NCBI GenBank assembly: GCA_963751515.1
Contig: CAVVUR010000004.1
Location: forward strand, 47,640 to 111,639
Source of the DNA: an uncultured delta proteobacterium
Lineage (GTDB): Bacteria; Desulfobacterota; WTBG01
Direction of reading: 5' to 3'
DNA length: 64,000 nucleotides
How positions within the stretch are numbered: the first letter of the stretch is position 1; the number at the start of each line of letters is the position of its first letter. The notes under the pieces are model-generated. The model saw nothing but the letters and a program-made list of their open reading frames with translations, searched no databases and had not been told where the DNA came from. Shown here in pieces: positions 16,349-59,126 of this stretch. A program made the translations under genes and the position numbers.

Positions 16349-16490
16349 TTCCTGTATCCTCCAATGCGAAAGCCGCATTATTAGGATTGCCAAAATGAAA
16401 TGAACCATGTAAAAATAGTATCCGAGCCGTCGGCGGGGTGTCAAGATGAAATATTGCAATGGCCGACGCTTTTCTCAATCAGTTAGGGGG

Positions 16491-17152: not shown

Positions 17153-17154
17153 TG

Positions 17155-17952
17155 ATGGCATCGGTCAATGCAAATGGAATTGAAATATATTATCAAACCA
17201 ATGGCAATGGGCCACCGCTAACCCTGATTATGGGACTGGGCTGTTCTGCCCGTCAATGGCAGTGGATGCTGCCGGTGTTGTCCACTGCCTTTCAGGTTAT
17301 CACTTTCGATAACCGGGGGGTAGGAAGAACCAGCAAGCCAGCGATGGAATACACAACAGATCTGTTTGCTGAAGACACCTGCGCTTTACTCAATGCCTTG
17401 GGCGTAGAAAAAACCCATATGTTTGGTGTTTCTGTGGGAGGAATGATCGCACAAAAGTTTGCGATACAATTTCCAGAGATGGTCGACCGCTTGGTTCTTG
17501 GTTGTACAATGCCTAATTTTTATCATTTGCCTCCCAAAGAGGAGGATTCCCAACGTTTGCAGGAGTCTCAGGTACTGCCCCTTGAAAAAGGTCTTGATGT
17601 AATGATGGGCCTGTTTCTTACGGAACATTTTTGCCGAGAACACCCTGATCAAGCGGCGAAGTTAAAAGAGATACTGCGAATCGAGAAAGAAGAACAGGGC
17701 CAGGAGGCGTTTCTCCTCCAGCTTGCTGCAGCAATGAATCATGATACACTGGAGCAGGTTCAGAATATTACGGCTCCTACCTTAGTTATTACAGGGAATT
17801 TAGATCCAATGGCGCCAGTTCAAAATTCGCGTTTTCTTGCCGAGAAGATTCCAAACAGCACATTGGCAGAAATTCCTGGGGTGCGTCATGCACTGTGGGT
17901 GGAAAGATTTGAAGAGTTTTCTGAGATCATTATAAAGTTTCTGAGTCATTAG
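17155..17952 (+). CDS. Alpha/beta-fold hydrolase
   Basis: GPPLTLIMGLGCS...FDNRGVGRT...MFGVSVGGMIAQ (GxSxG nucleophile elbow)...GVRHALWVE (catalytic His region). The listed start at 17152 is GTG; ATG follows at 17155. Confidence 0.8.
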   Translation: MASVNANGIEIYYQTNGNGPPLTLIMGLGCSARQWQWMLPVLSTAFQVITFDNRGVGRTSKPAMEYTTDLFAEDTCALLNALGVEKTHMFGVSVGGMIAQKFAIQFPEMVDRLVLGCTMPNFYHLPPKEEDSQRLQESQVLPLEKGLDVMMGLFLTEHFCREHPDQAAKLKEILRIEKEEQGQEAFLLQLAAAMNHDTLEQVQNITAPTLVITGNLDPMAPVQNSRFLAEKIPNSTLAEIPGVRHALWVERFEEFSEIIIKFLSH

Positions 17953-20766: not shown

Positions 20767-20864
20767 GAAGAAAGCCCCTTGTCCCATAGGTAATAGTACA
20801 GCCGGATACGTGATGATACTTCTTTATGAAAACCCCCATGCCCCTTAGGAGTACAATGAAGATA

Positions 20865-21893
20865 TTATTTTCCCATCAGAAGCTCAGTTACCGGTATGGA
20901 TATCTCCAATACCTTTCTTGCAGGATATTTGATCCAAGGGTTGCGGTTAAAAAATGCAACCACCCGTTTACCATTGGAGTAATACAGGTCAATGAGCTTT
21001 TCCCCGGCAGCGCTTTTGGCCATGACCGTATCGCGAAATTCGCGCAGTGTAGCGGCCCGTGCATCATCTGCCCCAAAAAGAGAGAGTATCGGACATGCAC
21101 TGTCCTTAAACTGGCTGAGAAAATCAAGGGTGCTTTGAACCATTATCCGCTGCTGTTTCTCCCTGGAAATATCAGCCGGGTTGTCACCGAGCTGAACGAA
21201 ATCTTCATTGACTCCATCCCAGTAGTAGCCACATTGGGTATGGTTTCCTCCCTCAATCACCACAAACGGCGTGTTTTCAGGCAGATGCTCCTCTCCTGCT
21301 TTGATTTCATCCGGATGCCCATCGTTAGTGCCGTAAATGGAGATCGCTTGAAGGTCTGTACCGTCCAGACGGAAATCCTCTGAAGGCCAGGCGCCCCACA
21401 GCACAACTCCGTCAATTACATCCGTGTGCTTCTGAGCATAGTAGCAGGCAAAGGAACCTCCGACTGAATGTCCCCCGATTATCCATGTTTTGATTCCGGC
21501 ATAAGCGCTGATGATTGTATCTGCCCGGTCGGGACTAAAGGGTACAAGGTCACCAATCATCTTTACGATAACCACTAAGTACCCTTTTGCCGCGATGGCA
21601 TGGGCGGGGGGCGCGTAGGACCTCGGATCAACCAGTCCGCCCGGGTAAAAAATAAAGCCGATGGTCGGACTGGCATGTTTCGGCTTAAAAACATAATAAA
21701 AGTTTGATCCTTCCTCCCACTCCGCCACTTCGACCGTTTCAACCGTTACCCTGAAATCCGATTCCATGGCTTCCAGCGCTTCAGGCATGGCGAGACGGAT
21801 ATCTTCCGTTTGTGCGAGTACCGCATAGTCACTCACACTAAAAACCATACACAGCGATAGCATGAAAACAATAATTAATACTCGTGGCTTCAT
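20865..21893 (-). CDS. Secreted alpha/beta hydrolase with a C-terminal LR.FRD..L-type extension
   Basis: Signal peptide MKPRVLIIVFMLSLCMVFSVSDYAVLA, then ...GFIFYPGGLVDPRSYAPPAHAIAAKGYLVVIV...IIGGHSVGGSFA (GxSxG). The C-terminal roughly 65 aa, LFGADDARAATLREFRDTVMAKSAAGEKLIDLYYSNGKRVVAFFNRNP..., is shared with the 38813-40681 peptidase. Confidence 0.75.
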   Translation of the reverse strand: MKPRVLIIVFMLSLCMVFSVSDYAVLAQTEDIRLAMPEALEAMESDFRVTVETVEVAEWEEGSNFYYVFKPKHASPTIGFIFYPGGLVDPRSYAPPAHAIAAKGYLVVIVKMIGDLVPFSPDRADTIISAYAGIKTWIIGGHSVGGSFACYYAQKHTDVIDGVVLWGAWPSEDFRLDGTDLQAISIYGTNDGHPDEIKAGEEHLPENTPFVVIEGGNHTQCGYYWDGVNEDFVQLGDNPADISREKQQRIMVQSTLDFLSQFKDSACPILSLFGADDARAATLREFRDTVMAKSAAGEKLIDLYYSNGKRVVAFFNRNPWIKYPARKVLEISIPVTELLMGK

Positions 21894-21936: not shown

Positions 21937-23091
21937 TTATTCCCATAATTCCTCCGGAGTAAAAAAGTCATACCCTTCACAACTCGGCTCCGGGTTTTCC
22001 GTGTAAATATTCCAGATAAACTCATTGGTTGCCTTGCAATGGATAACGCAGATGCCCGTCAGGCCCACATAGCCTGGTATATAGGTCTCAATTTCCGCCG
22101 TTCTCTGACTGCAGGGAACCGTGTCATACCGGGGGTTTGTGTATGTTGGACTTGTTTCACATTTTTCCTGCGAGCTTGCCGGGGTGAAGCCGGGACCGGT
22201 AAAATCCATACAGTAATAGTTATTGGCAAGTGCGAAATAGAGCAGGCAGCTGCCATTGGTTGGCGATTCCAGGGCTGACGGCTTATCACACACGGAGCTG
22301 GTTGGAGTTATTAAAACAGGGTTTTCTTCAAAGCTCTTCTCAAGCATCCAGCTGAGTATCGCCTGGTGGCTTAACAATTTGCAATATCGCACCCCTTTTA
22401 ATCGCTCATCGGTAATGTCAGGATCATCATATGCCACGGAGAGGCTCCATGGCTCATAATAGTAACGGTTTCCATCGGTGGTTACTTTTGTGGCCGGGTC
22501 AACGGTAAGCCAGAAAGATCCAACGCGCACCGGATTTGTCGTATTATCAAGCGGCGGGAGGTCATCATCCCTGATGAAGGATAGCTGTTTCCCCTGCGAC
22601 AGGTATCTATCCTGCTCATCCGGGGTTAAGACGGTATTGAGAACGGTATCATAAACCGTCTGCTGCACATCCGCGCAAATTCCCTGCGGCTCATCATTGC
22701 TGAAACCAAATGCGGCGTCCACGCTGTCTTTGGACTTAAATTTGGCAACTATCACCCCGTTGATATTTGACGGTGCGTTCAGATAAGCGCTCATGTCTTC
22801 GGAATAGACAGTATAAAAAGGCTGTATCCAGTTTTCTTCGGCATTTAAGTCTGCATAGGAGCCCTCAAATGCCAGCACCGGTAATTCGGTAGCCCGGATA
22901 TCAATATCCTCTGACTCAATGTGTGTCATGGTCTTTTGGGCATTCCAGACCAGGCAATCATCATATGCCCCGGCCAGCTCATACCCTGTTTTGCCGGTGT
23001 CGACATCACAGGTATAAGTCGGCGGTCTTTCGCACTGGCTATTCAATGCCATGAGAAGAAAAAGCTGCATTCCTATCAATGCATTCCTCAT
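21937..23091 (-). CDS. Hypothetical lipoprotein or secreted protein
   Basis: 384-aa ORF with N-terminus MRNALIGMQLFLLMALNSQC (lipobox-like). It is Cys-containing and I recognise no family motif. It is co-directional with the flanking secreted-protein genes. Confidence 0.6.
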   Translation of the reverse strand: MRNALIGMQLFLLMALNSQCERPPTYTCDVDTGKTGYELAGAYDDCLVWNAQKTMTHIESEDIDIRATELPVLAFEGSYADLNAEENWIQPFYTVYSEDMSAYLNAPSNINGVIVAKFKSKDSVDAAFGFSNDEPQGICADVQQTVYDTVLNTVLTPDEQDRYLSQGKQLSFIRDDDLPPLDNTTNPVRVGSFWLTVDPATKVTTDGNRYYYEPWSLSVAYDDPDITDERLKGVRYCKLLSHQAILSWMLEKSFEENPVLITPTSSVCDKPSALESPTNGSCLLYFALANNYYCMDFTGPGFTPASSQEKCETSPTYTNPRYDTVPCSQRTAEIETYIPGYVGLTGICVIHCKATNEFIWNIYTENPEPSCEGYDFFTPEELWE

Positions 23092-23201: not shown

Positions 23202-25856
23202 TCAGGGAACTGCAACCACAAATCCTTCCCAGGTTACTTCTCCGGTTTCACTGTGGGAATCCGTGACCACGCACCGAATGGCATAGGTGCCCGCATCCCC
23301 GCTTCCGGTGTTCCACTGCCAGCTTGCGCTGTTTCCGCCCACCGCAGTCCAGCCGGGATCAGCTGCTTCCTTGACGGACCACTGATAGCCGTAGACCGGC
23401 TTGCCGCCCGTTACGTGTGCGCTAAAGGTTACACTTCCTCCCGCCACGATGGATTCGGTTTCCCCGTTGGTAAGATATACCATGGGTTTTACGATGGCAT
23501 TGAGCACATGGGATGCAAGCATCGGACCCACCCGGGGATCATCATTCGGAGGGATGTATATTTCCCACGTTCCGGTATACTGATCCTGCACCGGATTATC
23601 GGGATCAGGAGGGACGCCGGCAGGATCATAGCCAAGATGCCCGTATGCACTCATATCAAAGCATAACGAAGGGTCAAGATCGCTCATGCCCTGATTGATG
23701 GGTGTCTGACGAACCGGCGGATAAGGCATTAAAGGATCACCGCATCCTCCCATTGCAAAGCAGCATTCAGGTTTTGAGGTCTGGATTTCAACGCCGTTGG
23801 CCAGGGCAGAACCGGCCGGGCTTTTGTCATCACGTATTATCTCATCGTCACTGAACGTACCGGAGAGCTGTTTGAGGGTAAGGGTGCCGGAAGTGGCATT
23901 CCCCGTTATCCATTTTATTATTGCTGTCGCACCGGATGTTTGCCCCGTCAGCGTAGCGCCCGCACGAAACACAGATGTTCCGTTGTCATAATCGAGATTC
24001 CACTCGCCGCAGTCTGTATTAACCCAGATGCCCCAGTAATCTGCAAACGGGTGACCTGTTCCGGGATACCGGGTAAAATCACCCGTTCCCCATTTAAGCC
24101 AGTTCTTATAGCCGATCTCCCTGCCGGCAGTCTGGTTATATATCTCAACCATATTCAGGGCAGTGTCAGTTACCACCTGGGGAAAACTGATCACGATGTG
24201 CTGAACTCCCCGATCCTTCAGATATTCCAACGCCTCCCAGTAACGGTAGCCCCATTCGTCACCAGGCAACACTTTGTTCGTCTGGTAAAGCCAGGCATGC
24301 CCGTAGGATTCTCCGCGCATTTCCCGGTTTCGTTCCTCCAGCCCGTTTGCGGGATTCAATTCCTGGATACCTCCAAAGGCTCCGACAATATTGTCCGGGT
24401 CCATGTCTGAATGACGCTCGAGCAGTTTTGCCTTTATGTTCTTATTGATGATCTGGGTATCATTGACCTTCGGATCGAACCACTCGTTATAATCGTGGAG
24501 GGCATGATTGAAAAGAACTACCCCCGTATCGGCATCAGGAACGGTGCCTGAAAACGCAGCCTCTATGGCTTCCACATTCAGGTCGGTTACTACCGGATCG
24601 GAAACAATAGGGTTGGGGCTTCCGTTGAGCAACACATGGCTGTCCAGAGTCGGTTTTTTGAGGACACGGGTCCATCCCGCAGGTTCTATGGGATAGGACC
24701 GCTCCATCAGGTTGCTGTAATCATTCACCCAGAGCGCAGGAATGGAGACACCACGTTTCGTGTTCCAGTCATCCAGCGCACGTTTGCTCATTTCAACCAC
24801 ATCGTAGGATTTGGAGAAACGTGGCCCACCTACCGTCCAGTCAACCATGATAATCCGGTAGGCCCCCTTCTTAAGCAATCTCTCCGCCGGGCCGTCTACA
24901 TTGTACCGATACGGATCGCAACCGGGCCAGGGTCCGCCTGTTTCACCTTCGCCGCAGTATGTGCAGTTAGTTTTTGGACCGTCTCCGTCAGGGTCATTAT
25001 AGATAAAGCGCGGGTAGGCATAATGCTCCACACGGTCAGCGGCCATGTAACCCGCCCAATCCACCTCGAAGTTGAGACCATGGGTATTTGCATCGAGCGC
25101 AGCCTTCATATCCAGCAACTGCTGGTCAGAAAGAGAGTGAAAGGGATCAGTTCCGCCGATCCGGTCGTACTCGAACTCATACATCCTGATAAACCTGGCC
25201 GCAAACTCCCCAAATGCGGGATCCAGCACCAGGGGCCACATGGATGGATCCCAGATGACGAACTTGTAGACCGAGTGGTTGGGGTCATAAGAAAACTGAT
25301 GCACCGAGGCATCCCACATGTATTGAGGCTGATAGACATCCATGCCACCGTGGATCACAAAAATTACCCCCACCGGTCGTGCGCAGGAGGTGCAATCAGC
25401 TTTTTGAAATTGTCCTTTCATTACTACCAGATCCTGCAGATCAACCTTTCCGTCCCCGTTGGCATTGGCATAGCAGAACTCGGTTGCACAATCACTTTTT
25501 TGAAACTCCTTCTTCAGAAGTACCAGGTCAGGGAGGTTAACCTTGTCGTCGCAGTTGGTGTCGGCGTAACACTCGCACGCGTCTCCCTTGCCGTTTGCGT
25601 TACCGTCTCCCTGATTCGTGTCACAGGTTTGCCCGATTACGCACCCTCCGTTGTTCACACAGGTCGTCCCGGTGCCGGAAAGCAATCCGCTCACCGTCTT
25701 CACGCACGTCCCCAAAGCCGGGCCATTGGGAACACTGATGCAATTGTCCACATCATCCAGCACACCATCTGAATCGGCATCCTGTGCAACCGCCGGGCTG
25801 ATCAGTACGATGCAGAGAAGCATTACCGGTAGCATCATTCTTATCCAGATTTTCAT
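23202..25856 (-). CDS. Large secreted multidomain protein: TSP3-like repeat, Cys-rich region, complete two-segment dockerin-like module, ~600-aa central domain, C-terminal PKD/Ig-like domain
   Basis: Signal peptide MKIWIRMMLPVMLLCIVLISPAVA, then DADSDGVLDDVDNC, then CECYADTNCDDKVNLPDLVLLKKEFQKSDCATEFCYANANGDGKVDLQDLVVMKGQFQKADCTSC (about 25382-25577). The C-terminal ...GGSVTFSAHVTGGKPVYGYQWSV...GTYAIRCVVTDS... is PKD-like. Confidence 0.8.
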   Translation of the reverse strand: MKIWIRMMLPVMLLCIVLISPAVAQDADSDGVLDDVDNCISVPNGPALGTCVKTVSGLLSGTGTTCVNNGGCVIGQTCDTNQGDGNANGKGDACECYADTNCDDKVNLPDLVLLKKEFQKSDCATEFCYANANGDGKVDLQDLVVMKGQFQKADCTSCARPVGVIFVIHGGMDVYQPQYMWDASVHQFSYDPNHSVYKFVIWDPSMWPLVLDPAFGEFAARFIRMYEFEYDRIGGTDPFHSLSDQQLLDMKAALDANTHGLNFEVDWAGYMAADRVEHYAYPRFIYNDPDGDGPKTNCTYCGEGETGGPWPGCDPYRYNVDGPAERLLKKGAYRIIMVDWTVGGPRFSKSYDVVEMSKRALDDWNTKRGVSIPALWVNDYSNLMERSYPIEPAGWTRVLKKPTLDSHVLLNGSPNPIVSDPVVTDLNVEAIEAAFSGTVPDADTGVVLFNHALHDYNEWFDPKVNDTQIINKNIKAKLLERHSDMDPDNIVGAFGGIQELNPANGLEERNREMRGESYGHAWLYQTNKVLPGDEWGYRYWEALEYLKDRGVQHIVISFPQVVTDTALNMVEIYNQTAGREIGYKNWLKWGTGDFTRYPGTGHPFADYWGIWVNTDCGEWNLDYDNGTSVFRAGATLTGQTSGATAIIKWITGNATSGTLTLKQLSGTFSDDEIIRDDKSPAGSALANGVEIQTSKPECCFAMGGCGDPLMPYPPVRQTPINQGMSDLDPSLCFDMSAYGHLGYDPAGVPPDPDNPVQDQYTGTWEIYIPPNDDPRVGPMLASHVLNAIVKPMVYLTNGETESIVAGGSVTFSAHVTGGKPVYGYQWSVKEAADPGWTAVGGNSASWQWNTGSGDAGTYAIRCVVTDSHSETGEVTWEGFVVAVP

Positions 25857-25870: not shown

Positions 25871-26590
25871 CTAATGATTTGGGGAAGACCCGATTGACTG
25901 TGCTGACATCACATCCTTACCGTTTATGTTTAATTTCTTCATGAGATTACTTGAGAGGGTTTCGGTCTTAATGATCTTGTTTGTGAGTGATAGAATGTCT
26001 GCTATTTTCTGCCTGGGAATATCAAATTCAGAGAGTGCGATTGTTATAAGCAAGGAGTAAATATCTTCAGGACTTGCCGGTAATTGTTCATTGATTTTGG
26101 CCATCATCAGTGCCTTGGTAGCTCCATGAATAGCCAAAACTCTTGAATGAATCTCTTTGTCGGTGAAATGAAGGTTTAAATCCTTCAATAGATTCTTCAT
26201 TTTGTTGACTTTAATGGTTATCACTTCTTGGTCAACCGCTGCATTGTGAGAAATGGCCATGTAAAGATTCAACACGTGTTTATGCTTTAAAATCTCACAT
26301 GTTGCCAGTGCAACATCCAGAGCATATCGTAAGAGCGGCTCCCGGCAATCCACGGCAATCTTGTCGGTGATGCGGCTGATGTCCATCAGTGCATCATGCA
26401 AGCCGCCAAGCAGCAGCTCCTCCTTATTTTTAAAAAAATGATACAAGCTTCCTGTCGACAGACCGGCCTTCTTGAGTATCTGCCGGACAGAAGTGTTGTC
26501 ATATCCCTGCTCAAGGAAGAGTCGTCGGGAAATCTTTAGTATTCTTCGTTTTACCACTACTGAATTAGCTTCCCTGATGTTCATAAGCAT
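25871..26590 (-). CDS. TetR/AcrR-family transcriptional regulator, divergent from the 26803-32639 operon
   Basis: The HTH region is RRILKISRRLFLEQGYDNTSVRQILKKAGLSTGSLYHFFKNKEELL. The likely start is the ATG at 26590 or 26584 (MLMNIRE...) rather than the listed 26695. Confidence 0.88.
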   Translation of the reverse strand: MLMNIREANSVVVKRRILKISRRLFLEQGYDNTSVRQILKKAGLSTGSLYHFFKNKEELLLGGLHDALMDISRITDKIAVDCREPLLRYALDVALATCEILKHKHVLNLYMAISHNAAVDQEVITIKVNKMKNLLKDLNLHFTDKEIHSRVLAIHGATKALMMAKINEQLPASPEDIYSLLITIALSEFDIPRQKIADILSLTNKIIKTETLSSNLMKKLNINGKDVMSAQSIGSSPNH

Positions 26591-26637
26591 AATACCGGTA
26601 TCGTGAAATGATTCTGGGTTTCGTTCGCATTGTAGAT

Positions 26638-26701
26638 TAGAACATGTTTTTTTTCTCTTGACAAGCAAAAAATAAGCATGATACAAGTAGAACATGTTCT
26701 A
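26638..26701. promoter_or_regulatory. Divergent promoter/operator region: perfect 14-bp palindrome TAGAACATGTTCTA (26688-26701), related site TAGAACATGTTTTT (26638-26651), and TTGACA (26658-26663)
   Basis: The palindrome and an 11-of-14 second copy lie 50 bp apart between the tetR start and the 26803 start. TTGACA-N18-TACAAG sits immediately upstream of the perfect palindrome, which is a classic TetR operator arrangement. Confidence 0.55.
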
Positions 26702-26802
26702 ATTGATAAGCATGTTTTTACCACGCTGCCGGGATTTTTACGACACATGATCTTGACGGCAGATAAACACCCGGACACAGTCACTTTGCAGGAGGGAAAA
26801 AC

Positions 26803-27510
26803 ATGAAGACCATTGCTTATACAGAGCGGATAATCGAGGCACTTGCTCCGCTTAATCCGCAGCCCATGACAACCTATCAGGGAGAGGACGTCACCCGGTT
26901 TGAAAATATTGAAACCGACATGATGATTCATACCATGCGCTGCTTTGAAGCAGACAAGCTGGATAAAATCGTCACTATTAAGGCGGATGTGATGGGCGGC
27001 AAGATTATCGTATGGGGCACTACCATTGTCCCGGCTGATGCATACCCGCTCCCTATGTTCACATCAGAGATTGTGCAGGCGGTGAATCATCTCAGCTTGA
27101 GAGTGGATCTTATTCCCTTGGCTGATTGCGGACGTGATATGGCCTATCTTGAAAAATACATGGCCCCCATGGAGCCTATCTGGGAGAAATACAAAGACAT
27201 TGAGGGAATGGGAACCGAGCGATACCTCTGGCACCGGGTAATGCTCTCCCCATTTTATACCTATGGAAAGATTAAATATGAGGTTGAAAATATTGAGCAA
27301 CTATCTCTGGACATTACCACTGACTACTTGAAACTGTACACCCGATTCTGCTCCGAAGCCGAAAAGGCAGACCCCTCCTACATGGAATCATTGAATGGGA
27401 GAAAAAGGGACATGCTTAAAATCATGCTGGAAAACGATCCCGGTGAGGGACCGCTTAAGAAGGCCTTGGGCAAGGATAATGCAGAAAAGCTGCTCGCACT
27501 GCTTTTCTAG
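26803..27510 (+). CDS. Ferredoxin-dependent bilin reductase (FDBR, PcyA/PebA/HY2)-fold-like protein, paralogue 1
   Basis: SD AGGAGGG. The layout ...FEADKLDKIVTIKADVMGGKIIVWGTTIVPADAYPLPMFTSEIVQAVNHLSLRVDLIPLADC...EKYM.P......NDPGEGPLKKALGKDNAEKLLALLF parallels PcyA as I remember it (..FRKMHLEL....LDILHCVMFPEP.YGLPLFGCDIV.....SAAIADLSP...KNDKTRRVLEKAFGE.WAERY....LF). It is a paralogue of 31304-32032 and 47837-48556. This is a motif-level call only. Confidence 0.55.
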   Translation: MKTIAYTERIIEALAPLNPQPMTTYQGEDVTRFENIETDMMIHTMRCFEADKLDKIVTIKADVMGGKIIVWGTTIVPADAYPLPMFTSEIVQAVNHLSLRVDLIPLADCGRDMAYLEKYMAPMEPIWEKYKDIEGMGTERYLWHRVMLSPFYTYGKIKYEVENIEQLSLDITTDYLKLYTRFCSEAEKADPSYMESLNGRKRDMLKIMLENDPGEGPLKKALGKDNAEKLLALLF

Positions 27511-27559
27511 GTGAAAAGCTAAAGGCAGGAACAGCCCTGCACGTGCAATGGAGGATTAG

Positions 27560-28429
27560 ATGTCCCGGGAATTTGTTGATATTCGCATTCTGGATAATTT
27601 TTATCAAACTTCCAGCTTTTTCCCCATGCCGGTTGTACTGGTCAGCACCCTCAGTGCCTCCGGTGCCACCAACCTGGGCCCATATTCTCTTTGCTTCCCC
27701 TATATCGTGGTGCCCGGAGGGAAAAACCATGCCATGCTCCTGATAGCGCGGAGCGACAGCAACACCGCCCAGAATATTACCAGGTCCAAGGTCTGCGCGC
27801 TTAACTTCATCCCCGACAAGAAGAAGTACATGAAAAACTGCGTCATGCTGGGCTACCCCGGCGAAACCACTGAAGAAAAGATGAAAAACAGCATGTTTAC
27901 GCTTCAACCGTCCACGCGAGGCGGTCCGCTGCCCGAGGGGCTTTCTAAATTTCCTGATATAGTGGGAGAGGCATTTCAGGTGTTTGAGTGTACGTGGGAT
28001 GACCGCTTTCCTCTTCAACCCGTTTCTTCTTCCGGATCTTATCACCTGGTGCTGATGATTGATAAAATTGTCATGGAGAAAAAATGGCGGGATTGCTTGT
28101 TAAAGGGAAAAGGGTTTCCCCGTGTCCCCATTGATTACGGCTATCGTGACAACATCCAGTTCTGGTTCACCAAACACTCCAAGCCTTACGCGCTTCCCGT
28201 TCCCCGGAGCAAGGAGGCATCGGTTGAGGCGGTTAAGTATGCCTGCGACCGCTTTGATCCGGACATTAAGTGGGAGAGGGAAGCATGCGCAAAAATAGTG
28301 AAGGTGCCAAATATATTTTTAAAAAGGGTCATAAAAGGAGTTGTGGAGGCGGCAAGGGCGGAAGGCATCAGCGTAATTACGCCGGAGTTTATGGATAAGG
28401 TGCAGGATAAGCGGTCTTCAGAGAAATAA
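27560..28429 (+). CDS. Flavin-reductase-like split-barrel domain fused to a C-terminal PCP_red-like domain (the type found at the C-terminus of protochlorophyllide reductase subunit B)
   Basis: The N-terminal ...FFPMPVVLVSTLSASGATNLGPYS...CALNFIP...EAFQVFECTW...GSYHLVLMIDKIV follows the Flavin_Reduct pattern. The C-terminal WEREACAKIVKVPNIFLKRVIKGVVEAARAEGISVITPEFMDKV follows W..EA...L.KIP.FVR..VR...E..AR..G...IT.E. Confidence 0.55.
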   Translation: MSREFVDIRILDNFYQTSSFFPMPVVLVSTLSASGATNLGPYSLCFPYIVVPGGKNHAMLLIARSDSNTAQNITRSKVCALNFIPDKKKYMKNCVMLGYPGETTEEKMKNSMFTLQPSTRGGPLPEGLSKFPDIVGEAFQVFECTWDDRFPLQPVSSSGSYHLVLMIDKIVMEKKWRDCLLKGKGFPRVPIDYGYRDNIQFWFTKHSKPYALPVPRSKEASVEAVKYACDRFDPDIKWEREACAKIVKVPNIFLKRVIKGVVEAARAEGISVITPEFMDKVQDKRSSEK

Positions 28430-28462
28430 CACCAAACCTATCAAGGGAAAGGGACTGTAACG

Positions 28463-30421
28463 ATGAAACTTTTGGAACCGGGCTCTATCGGGAAGCTCAA
28501 GGTTAAAAACCGTGTGGTTATGGCAGCAATGGGTGCCCACGGCCTGCATGAAAGTGACGGGAGCTGGGGAAAACGCTATCGTGCCTATTATGGGGCACGG
28601 GCTGCCGGCGGGGTTGGGCTCATTACGACCGAAACCACCTTTGTCACCCAGGCCCTTGAGCCATTCAGCGCGGGACTATTCAACGTGGCTTCTGACAAGC
28701 ACTTGGATTCCATGAGACTGCTTGCCAACACTCTCCATTTCTATGGCTGTAAACTCTGCATTCAGCTGACCGCCGGATTCGGGCGCGTCGTGCCTCCCCC
28801 GGTGGTACCTGAAGGCGTGCTTCCCGTTTCGGCCTCGGTTAACACCCACTATTCACCGGTCATACCAATTGGTCCTGATGCCACGACCAGGGCAATAACC
28901 ACGGAGGAGGCATCAGCCCTTGCCCAGTCCTTTGGTTATGCCGCGATGCGTTGCCGCGAAGGAGGAGCGGATTGTGTCGAGCTTCACGGTCATGAGGGTT
29001 ATTTGCTGGACCAGTTCATGACCCCCCTGTGGAACAGGCGCGACGACCGCTATGGCGGTTCCAGAGAAAAAAGGCTTACTCTGGCCCGGGAAGCGATTGC
29101 GGCCATCAAGCGCGATGCCGGTGAGGATTTTCCGGTTATCTACCGCTTCGGCATCACCCATCACCTTGAAGGCGGACGGGAGGAGGAAGAAGGGTTGTGG
29201 ATTGCTCAAGAGCTGGAAAAAATGGGTGTTGACGCGCTTCATGTCGATGCCGGCTGTTATGAAACGCACTGGTGGCCCCACCCGCCGCAATACTTCCCAC
29301 CGGGTTGCATGGTGGATATCTCTGCAAAGGTTAAAAAGGTCACATCGCTCCCGGTGATTGCCGTTGGCCGGCTCCAGCATCCGCAAGCAGCCGAAAAAGC
29401 ACTGGTGGAAGGCAAGGCCGACTTTATTGCCATCGGAAGGGGGCTTCTCTCCGAACCTGACTGGGTCAATAAAATTGCGGACGGGAAGACCGATGAGCTG
29501 ATTCCCTGCCTGGGATGCCACGAAGGATGCAAGTGGCAGATGATCGCAGGAGAACCGACCAGTTGTGCCATCAATCCCTCCTGCGGCCATGAAATCGATC
29601 GGGCACTTACTCCACTTAAAGACAAAAGGTCGCTGCTGGTGGTCGGCGGCGGGCCGGCCGGGATTGAGGCGGCACGGGTTGGTGCGGCGCGCGGGTTCGA
29701 TGTTACGCTCTGGGAGGCCGCAGACCGGATCGGCGGTAATCTCTGGCCTGCTGCAAAACCTGATTTCAAGTATGATATTGCTGATTATATAAAGTACCTC
29801 GCTGGACTGGTGAAGCGGTTGCCGATCAATCTTGTTCTTAATAAAAAGGCGACTGCAGAGGATGTTCGAAACTTTGGCGCAGACTATGTTATCCTTGCGA
29901 CCGGCGCACAGATGGAAAAGCCTCCCTTCAACAATGGGGCATCAAATAAGGTTTTTAGTGTTATGCAAGTACTAAACGGTGTGGAACCGCAGGGAAACAG
30001 GGTGTTAGTTATGGGAGGCGGCGTAATAGGCTGTGAGACAGCCCTCTACCTGGCACGCAGGGGTAAGCAGGTTACCATTAGCACGAGACGGGATAAAAGT
30101 GCACTGGCGGAAGATCTCTATGACCACAACAATCACGATGTGCTTATCATGATGATGAAGGCAATTGATATTGAGGTGCTTTCAGAGACCGTCCCCATTC
30201 GGATGGAGGATGATGGTGTGCTGGTTGCCCAGGGTGAAGCTGAAAAGAAAATCTCGGTGGACAGCCTTGTATTTTCAGGTCGCATGCTGCCGGAAAACGG
30301 GCTGAGTACATCTCTTGAAGATATGAGCAATGTTTTCAGCGTTGGTGACTGTGTCAATCCTGAACGCATCATGGAAGCCGTCTGGACGGCTTTTAAGATG
30401 GTAAGGGAAATCGAACCGTAA
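28463..30421 (+). CDS. FMN/[4Fe-4S]/FAD ene-reductase (2-enoate reductase / 2,4-dienoyl-CoA reductase architecture), paralogue B
   Basis: 652 aa: MKLLEPGSIGKLKVKNRVVMAAM..., ELHGHEGYLLDQF, RDDRYGGS, CLGCHEGCKWQMIAGEPTSCAINPSCGHE, LLVVGGGPAGIEAA, VLVMGGGVIGCE. Confidence 0.88.
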   Translation: MKLLEPGSIGKLKVKNRVVMAAMGAHGLHESDGSWGKRYRAYYGARAAGGVGLITTETTFVTQALEPFSAGLFNVASDKHLDSMRLLANTLHFYGCKLCIQLTAGFGRVVPPPVVPEGVLPVSASVNTHYSPVIPIGPDATTRAITTEEASALAQSFGYAAMRCREGGADCVELHGHEGYLLDQFMTPLWNRRDDRYGGSREKRLTLAREAIAAIKRDAGEDFPVIYRFGITHHLEGGREEEEGLWIAQELEKMGVDALHVDAGCYETHWWPHPPQYFPPGCMVDISAKVKKVTSLPVIAVGRLQHPQAAEKALVEGKADFIAIGRGLLSEPDWVNKIADGKTDELIPCLGCHEGCKWQMIAGEPTSCAINPSCGHEIDRALTPLKDKRSLLVVGGGPAGIEAARVGAARGFDVTLWEAADRIGGNLWPAAKPDFKYDIADYIKYLAGLVKRLPINLVLNKKATAEDVRNFGADYVILATGAQMEKPPFNNGASNKVFSVMQVLNGVEPQGNRVLVMGGGVIGCETALYLARRGKQVTISTRRDKSALAEDLYDHNNHDVLIMMMKAIDIEVLSETVPIRMEDDGVLVAQGEAEKKISVDSLVFSGRMLPENGLSTSLEDMSNVFSVGDCVNPERIMEAVWTAFKMVREIEP

Positions 30422-30433
30422 AATGAGACCTGT

Positions 30434-31228
30434 ATGAATTCCCCCAAGATTGCCATGCTCGCACCCATGTGGGGGTTGATGTTCCTCTGGCTTGCTCTGG
30501 TAGCTGTTTCCGGTGTGCTGGCCTACCGGACGTGGCGGAGGACGGTCGGTGCCATGAGAACGCAGTTGTTATATCTATCGGTAGGATCCGCGATCGTATT
30601 TGTCGGTGATCTTCTCCACACCATTGCCTTTACCGTCAGCACCTACACCGGCGTACCGACCGGTCCGGTACATATTCTGGGAAGTGTTTTCGAATTTCGC
30701 ACCTTTGCCATGTTTTTTGATGCGCTCGCGTTCATGGTCTATTATGCGCTGTGGGCCCTCTTCATCGTTGCACGGTATCAACAAGGAAGCCTAGCCTTCT
30801 ACGACAAAGTCACCCTGGTTCTGGCAGTGACGTCTATGGCACTTATACTTCCCGGGGTAATTCCCAATGCCCTGGGTGTCTACTCACTGGATTATAACAT
30901 TGCAATCTGGGCGCCACACATGATCCTTTTCATTGTCTTTGGTGTAATGACGGTCTGGAAGCTGATTAGCTGTTCCCAATATGCCTTCAAACAAGCATCC
31001 GGCGTGGTAACGCACACCCAGGAAAGGGCGCTGACAATTGCGGGAATCGGATTCGCCTTCTCATTCTTATTCTTCACCCTTTTCCTGTTGTTAACCACAC
31101 TTAAAAGCGAGCCGGGCATTTGCATGATTCTTAAAACGTTTGCTTACATGCTTGCCTTTTTTTATCTGATTAAGGGATTTATCCTTCCTGCGCAAACGTT
31201 TCAAGTGACTGCTAATAGATCTGGTTAG
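30434..31228 (+). CDS. Seven-transmembrane-segment membrane protein of unknown family
   Basis: 264 aa. By eye there are seven hydrophobic stretches, at about aa 5-30, 45-68, 86-113, 125-147, 155-178, 199-223 and 230-252. The gene starts 13 nt after the ene-reductase stop. Confidence 0.65.
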   Translation: MNSPKIAMLAPMWGLMFLWLALVAVSGVLAYRTWRRTVGAMRTQLLYLSVGSAIVFVGDLLHTIAFTVSTYTGVPTGPVHILGSVFEFRTFAMFFDALAFMVYYALWALFIVARYQQGSLAFYDKVTLVLAVTSMALILPGVIPNALGVYSLDYNIAIWAPHMILFIVFGVMTVWKLISCSQYAFKQASGVVTHTQERALTIAGIGFAFSFLFFTLFLLLTTLKSEPGICMILKTFAYMLAFFYLIKGFILPAQTFQVTANRSG

Positions 31229-31303
31229 TTCATTGTTACATTTATTGCATCTATACATTGATTAAAAAAAGATTGTAAACAATAACCAGCTGGAGGAATG
31301 CCC

Positions 31304-32032
31304 ATGTCAGAAGAAAATTATATTTTTCCGCCCTATGACGAGGAGATAGCCACTATCATAAAAAAATTCGGTGGAGAACGAATGGAAACATACCAGGGGG
31401 ATGATATCAGACCCCTCTGGGACCTGAAAGGGGAAGGGCTGAATTGGAGTTTTAAGTATCTCTATGCAGCCCCGAAGCTGGAAAAAATAGTCCATGCAAT
31501 ACAATCCTACCGAGATAAACTCATGGTCTATGGAACCATTATCTGGCCCGATGACAAACATGCCTTACCGGTTTTCTCAGCCTTTTGGGCCGAAAGCGCC
31601 AAAGGGAGCTTCTTTCTGCTTGACTTCCATCCTACTGCCGATTGCATCTGCGATATTCCCTATATGGAAAAGTATCTGGAACCGCTTGAGGAGATCTTTT
31701 ACCAAGGAATGGAGTATTATCCCCATCAGGGGCCGGGAAGGAATCCTAACTGGTACCGTGCCCTGCTATCCCCCTATGCACTGTCTGCTGATATCTTCCC
31801 CGGTACGCAAGAGGATCAAAACCGGATATTAGAACTGATGAAAGGGTACCTCACGATATACCATGCCCTCTGGGAAAAAGATGAGCCACAGGATCCCGGG
31901 TACATGAAACCCCTGATTGCTCGCAGAGAGGCCATGAGAACAAATTTGCGGGAAAAGGACCCCGGAGGATACATGATGGAAAAGGCTGTGGGAGAAAAGA
32001 TGGCTGAGTTAAGCATAAGGGCGTACTTTTAA
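31304..32032 (+). CDS. FDBR-fold-like protein, paralogue 2
   Basis: The start is probably the second ATG (31304, 7 nt after GGAGGA), giving MSEENYIFPPYDEE..., which is parallel to MSAEYTFPLYGEK of paralogue 3. Further motifs are ...KLEKIVHAIQSYRDKLMVYGTIIWPDDKHALPVFSAFWAESAKGSFFLLDFHPTADC...EKYLEPLE...REKDPGGYMMEKAVGEKMAELSIRAYF. Confidence 0.55.
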   Translation: MSEENYIFPPYDEEIATIIKKFGGERMETYQGDDIRPLWDLKGEGLNWSFKYLYAAPKLEKIVHAIQSYRDKLMVYGTIIWPDDKHALPVFSAFWAESAKGSFFLLDFHPTADCICDIPYMEKYLEPLEEIFYQGMEYYPHQGPGRNPNWYRALLSPYALSADIFPGTQEDQNRILELMKGYLTIYHALWEKDEPQDPGYMKPLIARREAMRTNLREKDPGGYMMEKAVGEKMAELSIRAYF

Positions 32033-32093
32033 GAGATGCCAAATCAAAAAAAGAAGAGAGGGGTCATTGTAAACAGACCAGGGAGACTATACG

Positions 32094-32639
32094 ATGGAAG
32101 TTCATGAACTGACAGAAGAGGAACGAGAGCGGATGCTTGATGAGGCTTTCAAAATGATGAAAGTGGAAAGGAAGCATCCCGCTAAGCATGAACTCGAGGC
32201 AGGGATAATCGATTATCTCTGCAAGAAACATCCCTGTTCACTGGCAACCTGCGGTAAGGATGGAGTACCGCGGATCTCGGTGGTAGATTATATAAATGAC
32301 GGTCTCACTATTTATATCTTCAGCGAGGGCGGCGCCAAGTTTCAAAACATTAAAGAAAATAATAAGGTCGCTGTCGGGATCGGCAGCGGTGCCCGGGCAG
32401 TGAGGACCACCAGAGGTGTTAACATATGGGGTATTGCCGAAGTATTTACCGAAGAAACTCCTGAATTTGCCCATGGCATGAAACTTTTCAGCCCGATTCT
32501 CAAGGATATGGAAGCGGCCATAGGCACTCCGATCGAGATGCCTAAAGGTTTGATGAGGATGATACGGGTCACCCCCATTAAGATAGTTTACAACCACAAT
32601 AAAAAGGGGATTGCAAATGCTTATTGGATAGCAGATTAA
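32094..32639 (+). CDS. PNPOx-like split-barrel FMN-binding family protein
   Basis: ...HPCSLATCGKDGVPRISVVDYINDGLTIYIFSEGGAKFQNIKENNKVAVGIG...VNIWGIAEVFTEE... follows the pattern of the pyridoxamine-5'-phosphate-oxidase / HugZ-type barrel. SD GGGAG. Confidence 0.6.
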   Translation: MEVHELTEEERERMLDEAFKMMKVERKHPAKHELEAGIIDYLCKKHPCSLATCGKDGVPRISVVDYINDGLTIYIFSEGGAKFQNIKENNKVAVGIGSGARAVRTTRGVNIWGIAEVFTEETPEFAHGMKLFSPILKDMEAAIGTPIEMPKGLMRMIRVTPIKIVYNHNKKGIANAYWIAD

Positions 32640-32971
32640 TGGCAATGGTCGGATATCAAAGGCAGAACAAATATTTCCGACAGGACTATAGCAAATGGAT
32701 AATCCCCCCATTTTTTAATCCTGAATTTTGACATACATGCACGACAGAAACTGAAGGGCTTGGTTTATATACAATAAAACATTGTTCTTCTTCACAATAG
32801 AATAAACTGGACGTACACAAACGTATCCCTTAAAATCAAACCATCCATTCAACAAAGGAGGGGATAGGGATGAGATATACGTTTTGTACAAAGCAGAGCA
32901 AACGTTTGACACGGCTGGCGTCATTGGTGATGACTGTCTGCCGGGCAGTTGCTGTAAATGTAATTTTCACT

Positions 32972-34732
32972 ATGAAAAGAATGCAGTTTCTCATTTATTG
33001 TAACATCCTTATGCTTATGCTGGTAGCGATGTTTGGGTGTGTGCCATACCCGGAGAGTGGACCTGCTGATCTTGTAATCAAGAATGCGAAAGTTGTTACG
33101 GTTGATAAGGAAAATCCGCAAGCCGAGGCCGTCGCGTTTGTTGGAGAGTTTATTGTAGACGTCACTTCCAACCGGAACATTGCAAAGTACATTCAAAAAG
33201 GAAAGACGGAAGTTATTGATGCCGGGGGGAGACTTGTCATACCCGGATTCAACGATGCTCATGCGCATTTTTCATCCGTTAACCTAGATTTCATTGACCT
33301 CAGGTATATCACCGATCCGGATATCATTACAGAAAAGGTGCGGGACAAGATAGCTGTATCCCAACCGGGAGAGCTTATCATGGGTGGTAACTGGGACCAC
33401 GAGATGTTTCCCGATAAAAGGTGGCCAACCAAAGAGTTGATCGATCCTGTTTCTCCTGACAACCCCGTGCTACTCTTCCGGACGGATTACCACTCGGTAT
33501 TGGTTAACAGCTATGTGTTAAGGAATTCGGGAATAACCAAGGAGACACCCGATCCGGAGGGCGGAGAGATTCAGAGAGACAGTGTGACAGGAGAGCCTAC
33601 AGGCATACTCAAGGAAGCGGCAAAGGGGTTGATTATAACCGGTGAAATACCGGTTGAAAGAACTGAAGAGGAGAAGAAACAACGCCTGATTGAAGGTTGG
33701 AAGGCAGCATTTAGGATGGCTGCTGAACTTGGTGTGACAAGTATTCAGCATCCGGGAGAGGGAGACGCTGAATTTTACCAGGAATGGTTTGACCAGGGAA
33801 TGCTCACGTGCCGGATAGATGTTGCCGGTCGGCTTACTAACAATACAGACGACCTGGAAAAATACAATGAGTTGAGAGAGAAATATCCACCCGAAGGAAA
33901 CTGGATCCGTTTCGGATACCTGAAAGGGCAAATTGATGGGACACTGGGTTCAGCTACCTGTATGCTTTATGAACCGTTCATCGGTGACCCGGATAATACC
34001 GGTTTATCTCAGATGACCTATGAAGAGCTGGAACAGAAAGTGGTAACATGCGACAGTATGGGATTCCAGATCGGAATACATGCCATTGGCGATAAGGCCA
34101 ATACCTGGATCCTGAATGCTTTTGAAAAAGCAGCCGAAGCAAACGGCTGGAGGGATAGCAGACACCGTAGTGAACACGCTCAGATCCTTATTGAAGAAGA
34201 TATTCCCAGGTTTGCACAACTAGGTGTCATCGCTTCCATGCAACCCACCCACTGCATAACAGATAAACGGTTTTGTGAAAAACGGATTGGTATGGAACGA
34301 TCTCAGTATGCATATGCCTGGAGGAGTTTATTGGATGCAGGTGCTAAGATTGCTTTTGGAACCGATTATCCTGTTGAACCACTCAATCCAATGGAAGGAT
34401 TATATGCAGCCGTTACCCGCAAAGACCGTATGGGAGAGGAAGGTGATGGCTGGTTCCCGGAACAGAAACTGACCATGGAAGAAGCCATTGAGCTCTATAC
34501 CCGTGGGGCAGCATATGTTCAATTCATGGAGAACAGGAAGGGCGTGATCAAAAAAGGTTATCTGGGGGATGTTGTTATTGTAAACCAGGATCTGATGGCC
34601 ATCCCTGAAGAAGATATCATGAAGACGACGGTGGATTATACCATAGTCGGAGGTAAGGTGGTTTTTAAAAGGAACGACACTGGCCGACTGAATTGTCCCC
34701 GATACTTAATCTCATCTAACCTCCTCTTCTGA
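32972..34732 (+). CDS. Amidohydrolase-3 family metal-dependent hydrolase, lipoprotein
   Basis: The likely start is the ATG at 32972, giving MKRMQFLIYCNILMLMLVAMFGC (lipobox). This is followed by ...GGRLVIPGFNDAHAHF (HxH), ...IGIHAIGD..., ...RSEHAQ... and ...AFGTDYPVEP... Confidence 0.8.
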   Translation: MKRMQFLIYCNILMLMLVAMFGCVPYPESGPADLVIKNAKVVTVDKENPQAEAVAFVGEFIVDVTSNRNIAKYIQKGKTEVIDAGGRLVIPGFNDAHAHFSSVNLDFIDLRYITDPDIITEKVRDKIAVSQPGELIMGGNWDHEMFPDKRWPTKELIDPVSPDNPVLLFRTDYHSVLVNSYVLRNSGITKETPDPEGGEIQRDSVTGEPTGILKEAAKGLIITGEIPVERTEEEKKQRLIEGWKAAFRMAAELGVTSIQHPGEGDAEFYQEWFDQGMLTCRIDVAGRLTNNTDDLEKYNELREKYPPEGNWIRFGYLKGQIDGTLGSATCMLYEPFIGDPDNTGLSQMTYEELEQKVVTCDSMGFQIGIHAIGDKANTWILNAFEKAAEANGWRDSRHRSEHAQILIEEDIPRFAQLGVIASMQPTHCITDKRFCEKRIGMERSQYAYAWRSLLDAGAKIAFGTDYPVEPLNPMEGLYAAVTRKDRMGEEGDGWFPEQKLTMEEAIELYTRGAAYVQFMENRKGVIKKGYLGDVVIVNQDLMAIPEEDIMKTTVDYTIVGGKVVFKRNDTGRLNCPRYLISSNLLF

Positions 34733-59125: not shown

Positions 59126-59126
59126 A

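Follow-up and report, generated by a model that had tools for sequence, protein, structure and literature searches.

Oxygen-free breakdown of tetrapyrroles is largely unknown beyond a few systems of gut bacteria and pathogens, namely ChuW/HutW, HmuS and BilR/BilV. HmuS is an anaerobic heme dechelatase (PMC12583661), and the OYE-family enzymes BilR and BilV together saturate the double bonds of bilins (PMC10769871, PMC13252198). BilR carries an HGDR motif that aligns with Tyr166 of FadH (PMC10769871), and BilV carries an AHAH motif (PMC13252198). Extracytoplasmic class II chelatases of anaerobes, such as FetB and the periplasmic CbiK of D. vulgaris, handle exogenous porphyrins (PMC13065792). 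Homologues of the ferredoxin-dependent bilin reductases (FDBRs) are known from the pre-PcyA clusters, which hold genes for heme oxygenase, an Fe-S protein, two V4R proteins and a BBAG globin, or for a B12-binding protein and a globin (PMC10151467, PMC13446030); the class is marked by the His88 of PcyA, or by Asn/Thr at that position (pre-2/pre-3) (PMC10151467). Sequences of the Ca. Schekmanbacteria type have been put in an RCCR-side 'outgroup' without function or context (PMC10151467, PMC13446030). Here we analysed a 64,000-nt stretch of DNA (the window) from an uncultured delta proteobacterium (GTDB Desulfobacterota, WTBG01; contig CAVVUR010000004.1 of GCA_963751515.1). It holds a gene module around an FDBR-fold protein, FDBR-A, and a secreted 884-aa protein, sec884, whose core is predicted to have a ferrochelatase fold. 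We see about even chances that this module is an envelope-to-cytoplasm system for the capture of an exogenous tetrapyrrole and the oxygen-free reduction of its conjugated C=C bonds.

The module-related genes cover roughly 15-35 kb of the window. The original prediction for this DNA had described six plus-strand genes transcribed in one direction and diverging from a TetR gene. These ORFs were confirmed with their coordinates, and the gaps between the six genes were, in order, 49, 33, 12, 69 and 61 bp. The gene of sec884, which was not discussed in that prediction, adjoins the TetR gene on the same strand, with TetR 14 bp upstream, and its orientation fits co-transcription of the two. One of the divergent gene sets encodes three exported proteins, namely the chelatase-fold protein, an α/β-hydrolase and a 384-aa protein, and also a second ene-reductase, OYE2; the other encodes cytoplasmic reductases. 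The central features are as follows.

23202-25856, minus strand: sec884, secreted 884-aa protein with a signal peptide (…AVA followed by QD), TSP3 and dockerin-like Ca modules, a predicted ferrochelatase-fold core (~150-800) and a C-terminal Ig-like domain
25871-26695, minus strand: TetR-family regulator (TetR_N 58.6 bits, gathering score 24)
26636-26701, no strand assigned: candidate TetR operators, the perfect palindrome TAGAACATGTTCTA and a partial copy
26803-27510, plus strand: FDBR-A, cytoplasmic, PF05996 68.3 bits, invariant Glu89 and Asp212
27560-28429, plus strand: FlvPCP, flavin-reductase-like split barrel fused to a PCP_red-like C-terminal helical domain
28463-30421, plus strand: OYE/4Fe-4S/FAD-NAD(P) ene-reductase (OYE), 652 aa, FadH-type active site HGHEGY
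30434-31228, plus strand: membrane protein with seven transmembrane segments (7-TM), of a very rare family without a Pfam or NCBIfam family
31298-32032 (alternative start 31304), plus strand: FDBR-B, PF05996 56.1 bits
32094-32639, plus strand: PNPOx/FDOR-type split-barrel flavoprotein (PNPOx_N 48.3 bits, gathering score 28.1)

Anaerobic non-phototroph is a fair description of the host, as had been proposed. The remainder of the window encodes AOR tungstoenzymes, a NuoE/NuoF-GltD-type electron module, ferredoxins and a B12-binding radical SAM protein, and domain scans of the window proteins found no heme oxygenase, globin, V4R or photosynthesis genes.

All three proteins previously called FDBR-like (at 26803, 31304 and 47837) exceeded the gathering score of 31 of PF05996 (Fe_bilin_red), the third, FDBR-C, with 41.1 bits. 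PF05996 was the only Pfam family matched by the FDBR proteins at E ≤ 1, with no match to RCC_reductase. An AlphaFold (AF2) model was built for FDBR-A, the only one of the three to be modelled, on 25 sequences and reached a pLDDT of 93.9 and a pTM of 0.92. Foldseek aligned it to PcyA, RCCR, PebB, HY2 and PebA at TM 0.77-0.80 with E-values down to 1.7e-12, and HemF was more distant. FDBR-A is thus predicted to have the α/β/α sandwich fold of PcyA, PebS and HY2. The family profile, searched against the PDB sequences, found HY2 (45 bits) and PebB (42 bits), followed by PebA and PcyA, and matched no RCCR chain.

The profile alignment also located the catalytic positions. Equivalents of PcyA His88 and Asp105 had been singled out for inspection in the original prediction; the former is not kept, its column holding the variable Trp71, and the latter, the central-strand catalytic acid, corresponds to Glu89, which is invariant in the FDBR-A family. 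The acid is therefore kept, but as Glu. The column of PcyA Glu76 holds Ile56 in FDBR-A. The Asp of the 'DP' motif (PebA D205/PebS D206) corresponds to D212 and is invariant in 25/25 aligned sequences, FDBR-B and FDBR-C included. Because both proton-donor positions are kept, FDBR-A looks catalytically competent. In FDBR-B and FDBR-C, the first catalytic-acid position is occupied by Phe and Tyr, respectively, and the second Asp is kept. The Ca. Schekmanbacteria sequences of the RCCR-side outgroup were found to belong to the FDBR-A family (P0075, 60% identity).

In sec884, Pfam recognised the Dockerin_1 and TSP_3 domains only, and the core gave no significant match by Pfam, NCBIfam, phmmer or a family profile searched against the PDB sequences. 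Its chelatase fold was recognised only by a structure model. The AlphaFold model of residues 150-800, made with 35 homologues, was of medium confidence (pLDDT 73, pTM 0.72). The top 43 of 43 Foldseek matches were ferrochelatase/CpfC structures from Listeria, Bacillus, yeast and human (E 7.6e-8 to 1.5e-5, probability 1.00, TM to target 0.48-0.64), and the next match had an E-value of 0.04. The model thus points to the two-domain Rossmann-like fold of class II chelatases. At the sequence level, the sec884 family profile reached only an E-value of about 0.3 against B. subtilis HemH, and hhalign against E. coli HemH gave one local segment, HemH 242-283 to core 386-426 (E 0.023, probability 2%). 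The invariant residues of the family are H20, H302, L418, E422, N425 and Q426. The segment LLLSYH194GIP of E. coli HemH resembles VVLFNH302ALH of sec884, where H302 is found in 35/35 sequences; the match is one of motifs, not of superposed structures. One helical turn past Leu418 comes the invariant Glu422. We conclude that sec884 is not a canonical ferrochelatase; judging from the model, it could bind porphyrins, act as a dechelatase or be a chelatase with altered specificity.

The window proteins were mapped onto 24 loci obtained via FDBR-A (locus numbers are given with an L), and all ORFs of these loci were clustered. Eleven independent FDBR-A contexts had enough flanking sequence to be counted. 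A sec884 homologue was present in 9/11, and PNPOx orthologues (59-71% identity) stood next to FDBR-A in 9/11 as well. FlvPCP and/or OYE were found in 8/11, or in 9 when an OYE gene about 10 kb upstream in L004 is counted. The most constant neighbour of FDBR-A is sec884. The relatives are all derived from metagenomes or metagenome-assembled genomes (MAGs), are labelled Thermodesulfobacteriota, 'delta proteobacterium' or Ca. Schekmanbacteria, and come mainly from soil, lake and marine sediment data sets.

A neighbourhood is thus kept across related genomes, but what is conserved is not the six-gene operon as such: the 7-TM and FDBR-B genes are not constant partners, and L001 is without four of the genes. 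L001 belongs to the closest relative, MAG MFD03899.bin.1.233, whose FDBR-A and OYE are 93% and 88% identical to those of the window. Its locus reads FDBR-A, OYE, Amidohydro_3, with no FlvPCP, 7-TM, FDBR-B or PNPOx gene there. The two blocks by which the window exceeds it, FlvPCP (27511-28462) and 7-TM/FDBR-B/PNPOx (30422-32869), appear to be recent indels inside the operon. L002 and L009 show the order FDBR-A, FlvPCP, OYE. The more distant genomes of L004, L005, L013, L014 and L015 share a long co-directional operon in the order MMPL, DUF1302, DUF1329, BNR, sec884 homologue, FDBR-A, a 151-aa protein or an α/β-hydrolase, PNPOx, FlvPCP or OYE, and a MamH-like MFS transporter. L012 and L016 are further permutations, one of which holds a penicillin amidase. 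L031, reached independently via FlvPCP, contains NmrA-like, FDBR, FlvPCP, Abhydrolase_5, OYE, DUF1302, DUF1329 and BNR genes, and L034, reached via sec884, has FDBR and PNPOx genes within 6 kb. That the partners stay together while their order changes is good evidence that the genes are functionally coupled. An 872-aa protein of L031 was rejected as a sec884 homologue. A ChuY-like role was rejected for the NmrA-type gene, which had generic SDR-type matches only.

Further tetrapyrrole-related genes recurred in these neighbourhoods. Genes of divergent HemF homologues (~252-262 aa; Coprogen_oxidas 101 bits in Pfam, 107 bits against an NCBIfam cutoff of 297) adjoin FDBR-A paralogues in L007/L008 (10865-11623) and L010 (12712-13500, minus strand), and chelatase-fold paralogues in 3 further loci (L039, L041, L071). 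HemF is the oxygen-dependent coproporphyrinogen oxidase. On the other side of FDBR-A in L007 lies a sulfite-reductase-like gene (NIR_SIR+Fer4). AOR genes are immediate neighbours of FDBR-A or chelatase-fold genes in L010, L033 and L034. The MFS protein that closes the module is similar to MamZ and, with 220 bits under a cutoff of 300, to MamH, magnetosome transporters thought to move iron; it was found in L004 (13044-14462), L014, L015 and 14/80 chelatase-fold loci.

Four independent tetrapyrrole-associated folds, FDBR, ferrochelatase, PCP_red and HemF-like, co-localise. We favour a tetrapyrrole as the substrate because these four converge with reductases, secreted hydrolases, an envelope system, a MamH-like MFS transporter and a repressor. 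The link to tetrapyrroles is stronger than in the original prediction, because sec884 is the most constant neighbour of FDBR-A and the HemF-like genes recur. The 'linear' part of the earlier proposal is conjectural; the module contains no ring-opening enzyme, either heme oxygenase or radical SAM of the ChuW type.

The presence of a surface chelatase fold and of MMPL proteins also allows a biosynthetic explanation, in which an endogenous tetrapyrrole is tailored by the cytoplasmic reductases, exported by MMPL/DUF1329/DUF1302 and metalated outside by the chelatase-fold protein to give a surface pigment, metallophore or redox mediator. The outer-membrane chelatase FetB of P. gingivalis makes Mn-PPIX at the surface (PMC13065792), the invariant His of sec884 lies at the HemH metal-ligand motif, and TSP3 and dockerin Ca modules are typical of surface-anchored proteins. 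This explanation is very unlikely in our estimation: the module holds no genes of tetrapyrrole core biosynthesis (hemA-L, cob/cbi), control by TetR and PadR, combined with hydrolases and amidases that are secreted, gives the impression of catabolism or scavenging, the MFS transporter and the variable accessory genes fit uptake, and the canonical catalytic Glu of ferrochelatase is absent from sec884, as far as the weak alignment tells. RND/MMPL proteins are normally exporters, which supports export and counts against a route based on capture.

The genes around the six-gene set and sec884 were also compared. They include the following.

32870-34732, plus strand: Amidohydro_3 lipoprotein (PF07969 362 bits; lipobox …MFGC)
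18814-20787, minus strand: OYE2, second OYE/4Fe-4S/FAD paralogue with the same HGHEGY motif, syntenic in L001 and transcribed in the same direction as TetR-sec884
20865-21893, minus strand: secreted Abhydrolase_5 protein with a CFI-box C-terminal sorting domain
21937-23091, minus strand: exported 384-aa protein between sec884 and Abhydrolase_5, without a family match
16446-16952, plus strand: second PNPOx, near the module
17152-17952, plus strand: Abhydrolase_1, 63% identical to the hydrolase between FDBR-A and PNPOx in L005
47837-48556, minus strand: FDBR-C, PF05996 41.1 bits, at a separate locus

A 93%-identical copy of the Amidohydro_3 protein is encoded directly 3' of the OYE gene in L001, and homologues of Abhydrolase_5 occur in L001, L016, L031, L061 and other loci. 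The minus-strand set 3' of sec884 (the 384-aa protein, Abhydrolase_5 and OYE2) is syntenic in L001 in all three members; the 384-aa protein is kept only in this closest MAG.

The OYE/4Fe-4S/FAD-NAD(P) layout given for the gene at 28463 was borne out by matches to Oxidored_FMN (198.6 bits) and Pyr_redox_2 (93.9 bits), and the cluster motif CLGCHEGCx11C (CX2CX3CX11C) was read directly from the sequence. Both ene-reductases of the window read ELHGHEGYLLDQF at the active site, in which HGHEGY represents a proton donor of the FadH Tyr166 type. In domains and motifs, both have the layout of the FadH-type enzymes, with an OYE barrel, a cluster, FAD/NAD(P) domains and a Tyr proton donor. The best solved relatives of OYE, 2-naphthoyl-CoA reductase (NCR; 6qkg, 272 bits) and FadH (1ps9, 256 bits), are equally distant. 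A place in the NCR/aromatic acyl-CoA pathway was rejected, as the similarity is no better than to FadH and no locus has CoA-pathway neighbours. In NCBIfam, OYE scored about half the cutoffs, with 386 vs 750 bits for long-form BilR (NF045599), 378 vs 825 for BaiCD and 379 vs 793 for mycofactocin OYE2. The likeness to long-form BilR noted earlier thus holds for the shared architecture, which is generic, and membership in BilR/BilV was rejected since the HGDR and AHAH motifs are absent.

The PNPOx protein at 32094 had been described as a PNPOx/HugZ-type barrel. The first half of this description stands, and the protein is a generic FDOR/PNPOx member with Rv2991 as its best PDB relative. A HugZ-like heme-opening role was rejected, with 20.5 vs 240 bits for HugZ and 13.1 vs 225 for HutZ (NCBIfam) and no HugZ chain of the PDB matched. 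HugZ-type ring opening requires O2. The FlvPCP protein, proposed to fuse Flavin_Reduct to PCP_red, was itself below the threshold of both models (20.7 vs 27 bits; 21.1 vs 32.5 bits for PCP_red, PF08369, over the full model length). Among 35 diverse members of its family of 2313 relatives, Flavin_Reduct was matched in 30/35 and PCP_red in 32/35 at E ≤ 0.01 (best 4e-6). The family profile found BchB (subunit B of DPOR) at 448-503, stand-alone PCP_red proteins and the FMN-binding protein 1eje. Because most relatives match both models and the profile finds the C-terminus of BchB, the domain call, though divergent, holds at the family level by sequence comparison. The 7-TM family is tiny, with 26 representative clusters among 1.84e9 proteins, and the sole metagenome contig on which a member accompanied these genes is 100% identical; the other relatives are not near FDBR genes, and this rare family with unrelated neighbours was rejected as a conserved partner. 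FDBR-B is ~30% identical to FDBR-A, has HY2 and PebB as best PDB relatives, and its orthologues (58-62% identity) lie in unrelated gene contexts.

These results bear on the narrow version of the original prediction, that the six plus-strand genes carry out a BilR-like reduction of a linear bilin (biliverdin/bilirubin type) with PNPOx as a HugZ-like heme opener. The FDBR fold, the long-BilR-like architecture and the two OYE paralogues, as in the pair BilR and BilV (PMC13252198), agree with it. We nevertheless regard it as scarcely probable, given the missing HGDR and AHAH motifs, the HugZ/HutZ scores far under their cutoffs, the oxygen demand of HugZ-type opening, and a six-gene set that is not conserved, with 7-TM and FDBR-B as local additions. 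The conserved partner, an exported chelatase-fold protein, points instead to a metallated cyclic starting material. Overall, the earlier interpretation was partly supported, with corrections to the limits of the operon, to the specific likeness to BilR and HugZ and to the claim of a 'linear' substrate.

Between the divergent gene sets, a 14-bp perfect palindrome, TAGAACATGTTCTA, occupies 26688-26701, and a copy with 2 mismatches occupies 26638-26651. The core of the palindrome, AGAACATGTTCT, is kept in the intergenic region between TetR and FDBR-A in L001, where a TetR orthologue of 71% identity has the same position. The true start of TetR is probably at ~26590 (MLMNIRE…) and not at 26695. 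A TetR-type repressor, a divergent promoter region and an inverted repeat are thus found together, and the repeat is a candidate operator. A promoter/terminator scan was uninformative, with counts equal to the shuffled expectation, and an Rfam scan detected no riboswitch near the module.

From the gene content, folds, conserved residues and conserved neighbourhood described above, we propose as the substrate a metalloporphyrin, or a ring-opened heme or chlorophyll derivative, that would be captured at the cell envelope. The surface chelatase-fold protein would bind the macrocycle and remove or exchange its metal, esterases and amidases would trim the side chains, and the envelope proteins would move the hydrophobic pigment, presumably inwards. 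In the cytoplasm, FDBR-A with reduced ferredoxin as the likely donor would carry out radical, proton-coupled two-electron reductions, and the flavoenzymes would reduce vinyl or bridge double bonds in hydride-type steps. The pigment or a product may bind TetR and thereby derepress both gene sets. The purpose could be metal salvage, an electron sink or both.

Several observations weigh against this route. The FadH-type Tyr of the ene-reductases is typical of carbonyl- or thioester-activated substrates and differs from the BilR/BilV motif. In sec884, the column of the HemH catalytic Glu (CLETL) is occupied by the invariant Leu418, albeit in the weak hhalign alignment (E 0.023), and Pfam Ferrochelatase does not match its sequence. 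The chelatase-fold family is multi-copy, some Thermodesulfobacteriota MAGs carrying 4 or more paralogues, and an FDBR gene lies within 10 kb in only 17/80 chelatase-fold loci (L037-L116). In Gammaproteobacteria (Woeseia, Chromatiales), the genes of this family belong to another kind of operon, without tetrapyrrole-enzyme neighbours. FlvPCP is widespread without a nearby FDBR, for instance in Methanocellales and Spirochaetota. Heme oxygenase, ChuW/HutW and ferredoxin genes were not found in the module, and distant FDBR paralogues have thiolase, SDR, FAD-oxidase/CCG and AOR genes as neighbours. In Pseudomonas, a DUF1302/DUF1329/BNR/RND set has been linked to fatty-ester phenotypes (bioRxiv 10.1101/2020.07.04.188060). 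All of the evidence comes from MAGs, and the substrate assignment is a prediction only.

Much of this would suit a module that catabolises a hydrophobic conjugated compound other than a tetrapyrrole, such as an esterified polyene, an isoprenoid, a quinone or an aromatic acid, for which the FDBR and chelatase folds had been recruited. Hydrolases would free the substrate, the envelope system would traffic it, and FadH-type ene-reductases and flavoproteins would saturate its activated double bonds. The HGHEGY donor and the best solved relatives of OYE, 2-naphthoyl-CoA reductase and FadH, agree with this, as do the recurring α/β-hydrolases, penicillin amidase and Amidohydro_3, the thiolase, SDR, FAD-oxidase/CCG and AOR neighbours of the distant FDBR pairs, and the gammaproteobacterial chelatase-fold genes. 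AOR genes beside chelatase-fold and FDBR genes, and the Bam-like AOR/NuoEF cluster in the window, fit as well, and the Pseudomonas genes were co-fit on Tween 20 and fatty esters (10.1101/2020.07.04.188060). We consider this rival somewhat unlikely all the same. Four separate tetrapyrrole folds would need joint recruitment, genes for a CoA ligase, an enoyl-CoA hydratase or other steps of β-oxidation are missing from the module, and FDBR-A keeps both FDBR proton-donor positions invariant. To our knowledge, linear tetrapyrroles are the substrates of all FDBR/RCCR-fold proteins characterised so far.

The gammaproteobacterial operon consists of genes for an α/β-hydrolase (556 aa), an FAD_binding_4 oxidase, a chelatase-fold lipoprotein, DUF1838 and cytochrome c; a secreted amine oxidase is often encoded there as well. 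The amine oxidase and hydrolases of the window were rejected as orthologues of these neighbours, since the similarity is confined to cofactor motifs. Distant FDBR paralogues (~30% identity) occur as tandem pairs in L018, L019, L021, L023 and L024, beside two PNPOx, thiolase, SDR, FAD_binding_4/FAD-oxidase_C and CCG+Fer4_8 (HdrD/GlcF-like) genes, with an AOR gene ~4 kb away in L024, which suggests that the FDBR fold diversified in these anaerobes beyond one pathway. In the window, FDBR-C adjoins a YqeC-family gene and a 639-aa B12-binding radical SAM protein (49453-51372), the region spanning 47837-51372 on the minus strand, with an M48 peptidase downstream. The best NCBIfam match of the radical SAM protein is a RiPP C-methyltransferase (96 bits vs 282), and BchE scored 47 bits. 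The FDBR-C locus may be a separate FDBR-linked system.

Other elements of the window include a group II intron at 1606-3747 (minus strand; Rfam RF02012 at 3595-3747, 117 bits, and RF00029 at 1606-1682, 59 bits) with an RT/maturase ORF (1740-3197; RVT_1, GIIM) between its domains. An IS21-type element at 6836-8865 (minus strand) has an IstA-like transposase (7609-8865; rve and Mu-transposase C domain) overlapping IstB (6836-7612; 270 bits). The Bam-like low-potential redox cluster at 52633-63781 holds two AOR-family tungstoenzymes (57095-59245 and 60097-62061), a NuoE-like 2Fe-2S protein (56602-57063), a 1050-aa NuoF::GltD-type fusion (53453-56605), Fer2/Fer4 proteins (52633-53409 and 62063-62578) and XdhC (62969-63781). 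Secreted proteins with TSP3, dockerin or CarboxypepD_reg domains, a DUF5122 β-propeller, and a papain-family protease with CARDB are encoded at 10328-12536, 13055-14311 and 38813-40714. The organism appears to be rich in surface-anchored hydrolytic proteins.

Anoxic sediments are constantly supplied with heme, chlorophyll and bilin pigments. A wider reading, which we put forward as speculative and unlikely as it stands, is that sediment anaerobes take up and dismantle heme- and chlorophyll-derived tetrapyrroles independently of oxygen, through extracellular metal removal by the giant chelatase-fold surface protein, trimming of side chains by secreted esterases and amidases, transport through the envelope, and reduction of the cyclic or anaerobically opened macrocycle by ferredoxin-driven FDBR enzymes along with PCP_red-flavin/PNPOx/OYE enzymes. 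If true, the module would give a first glimpse of such a pathway in these anaerobes, and the FDBR/RCCR/HemF fold family would have had an ancestral role in anaerobic tetrapyrrole catabolism, predating pigment biosynthesis in phototrophs. This would bear on the origin of the bilin reductases of photosynthetic light harvesting, since the published trees leave the FDBR-A family as an unexplained 'outgroup'. The module also offers candidates for a new class of exported chelatase or dechelatase, for FDBR enzymes of strict anaerobes and for a function of the Flavin_Reduct::PCP_red family with its >2000 relatives. In the literature searched, neither this module nor a link between an FDBR-type gene and an exported chelatase-fold protein is described. 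The parts are known kinds of enzyme; what is new is how they are combined, the giant secreted chelatase-fold protein and the strict-anaerobe setting, and there is a real chance that the module represents a new pathway.

As the original prediction had expected, the cluster falls outside the characterised pathways, with no aromatic acyl-CoA, BilR or pre-PcyA match. With the FDBRs (PcyA, PebA/B, PebS, HY2) and RCCR it shares the predicted fold, PF05996 and two proton-donor positions, HY2 and PebB being the best sequence relatives. Unlike them, it belongs to an anaerobic non-phototroph with no heme oxygenase, phytochrome or phycobiliprotein context, FDBR-A has Glu instead of Asp at the first position and lacks PcyA His88/Glu76, and FDBR-B/C have Phe/Tyr. 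The pre-PcyA clusters (PMC10151467, Rockwell 2023; PMC13446030, Frascogna 2026) are alike in that FDBR homologues occur in non-photosynthetic bacteria. A cluster of that type was rejected here, as the window has no heme oxygenase, V4R, globin or such B12-binding/globin cluster and the active-site signature differs.

FetB/IhtB of P. gingivalis and CbiK of D. vulgaris (PMC13065792), and HmuS (PMC12583661), resemble sec884 in being exported chelatase-fold proteins of anaerobes linked to the handling of exogenous porphyrin or metal. In contrast, sec884 has 3 times their size and contains insertions, a β-domain and modules of the TSP3, dockerin and Ig-like types. In the structure model it is nearest to HemH/CpfC and not to CbiK, and the canonical catalytic Glu is not aligned. 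HmuS belongs to class I (CobN-like), and none of the FetB, CbiK and HmuS systems contains FDBR-fold enzymes. ChuW/HutW-ChuY share with the proposed route an oxygen-independent tetrapyrrole catabolism followed by reduction of a linear product, and NmrA/NAD_binding_10-type genes occur in some versions of the module. They differ by a class C radical SAM enzyme, which the module does not have; the radical SAM protein of the window (49453-51372) lies at another locus and is of the B12-binding class B. FadH/NCR are the best solved relatives of the ene-reductases and have the same Tyr donor and the same 4Fe-4S Cys motif, although the similarity is at the ~30% level, the module is without CoA ligase/β-oxidation genes and the neighbours are tetrapyrrole-fold proteins. 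BilR/BilV (PMC10769871, PMC13252198) likewise combine OYE, Fe-S and FAD/NAD(P) domains, with two paralogues in one neighbourhood and a small transcriptional repressor. They carry HGDR/AHAH and come from gut Firmicutes, whereas the present enzymes carry HGHEGY and come from sediment Thermodesulfobacteriota. The chemistry of BilR/BilV, the anaerobic saturation of tetrapyrrole C=C bonds, is the one that we propose for this module.

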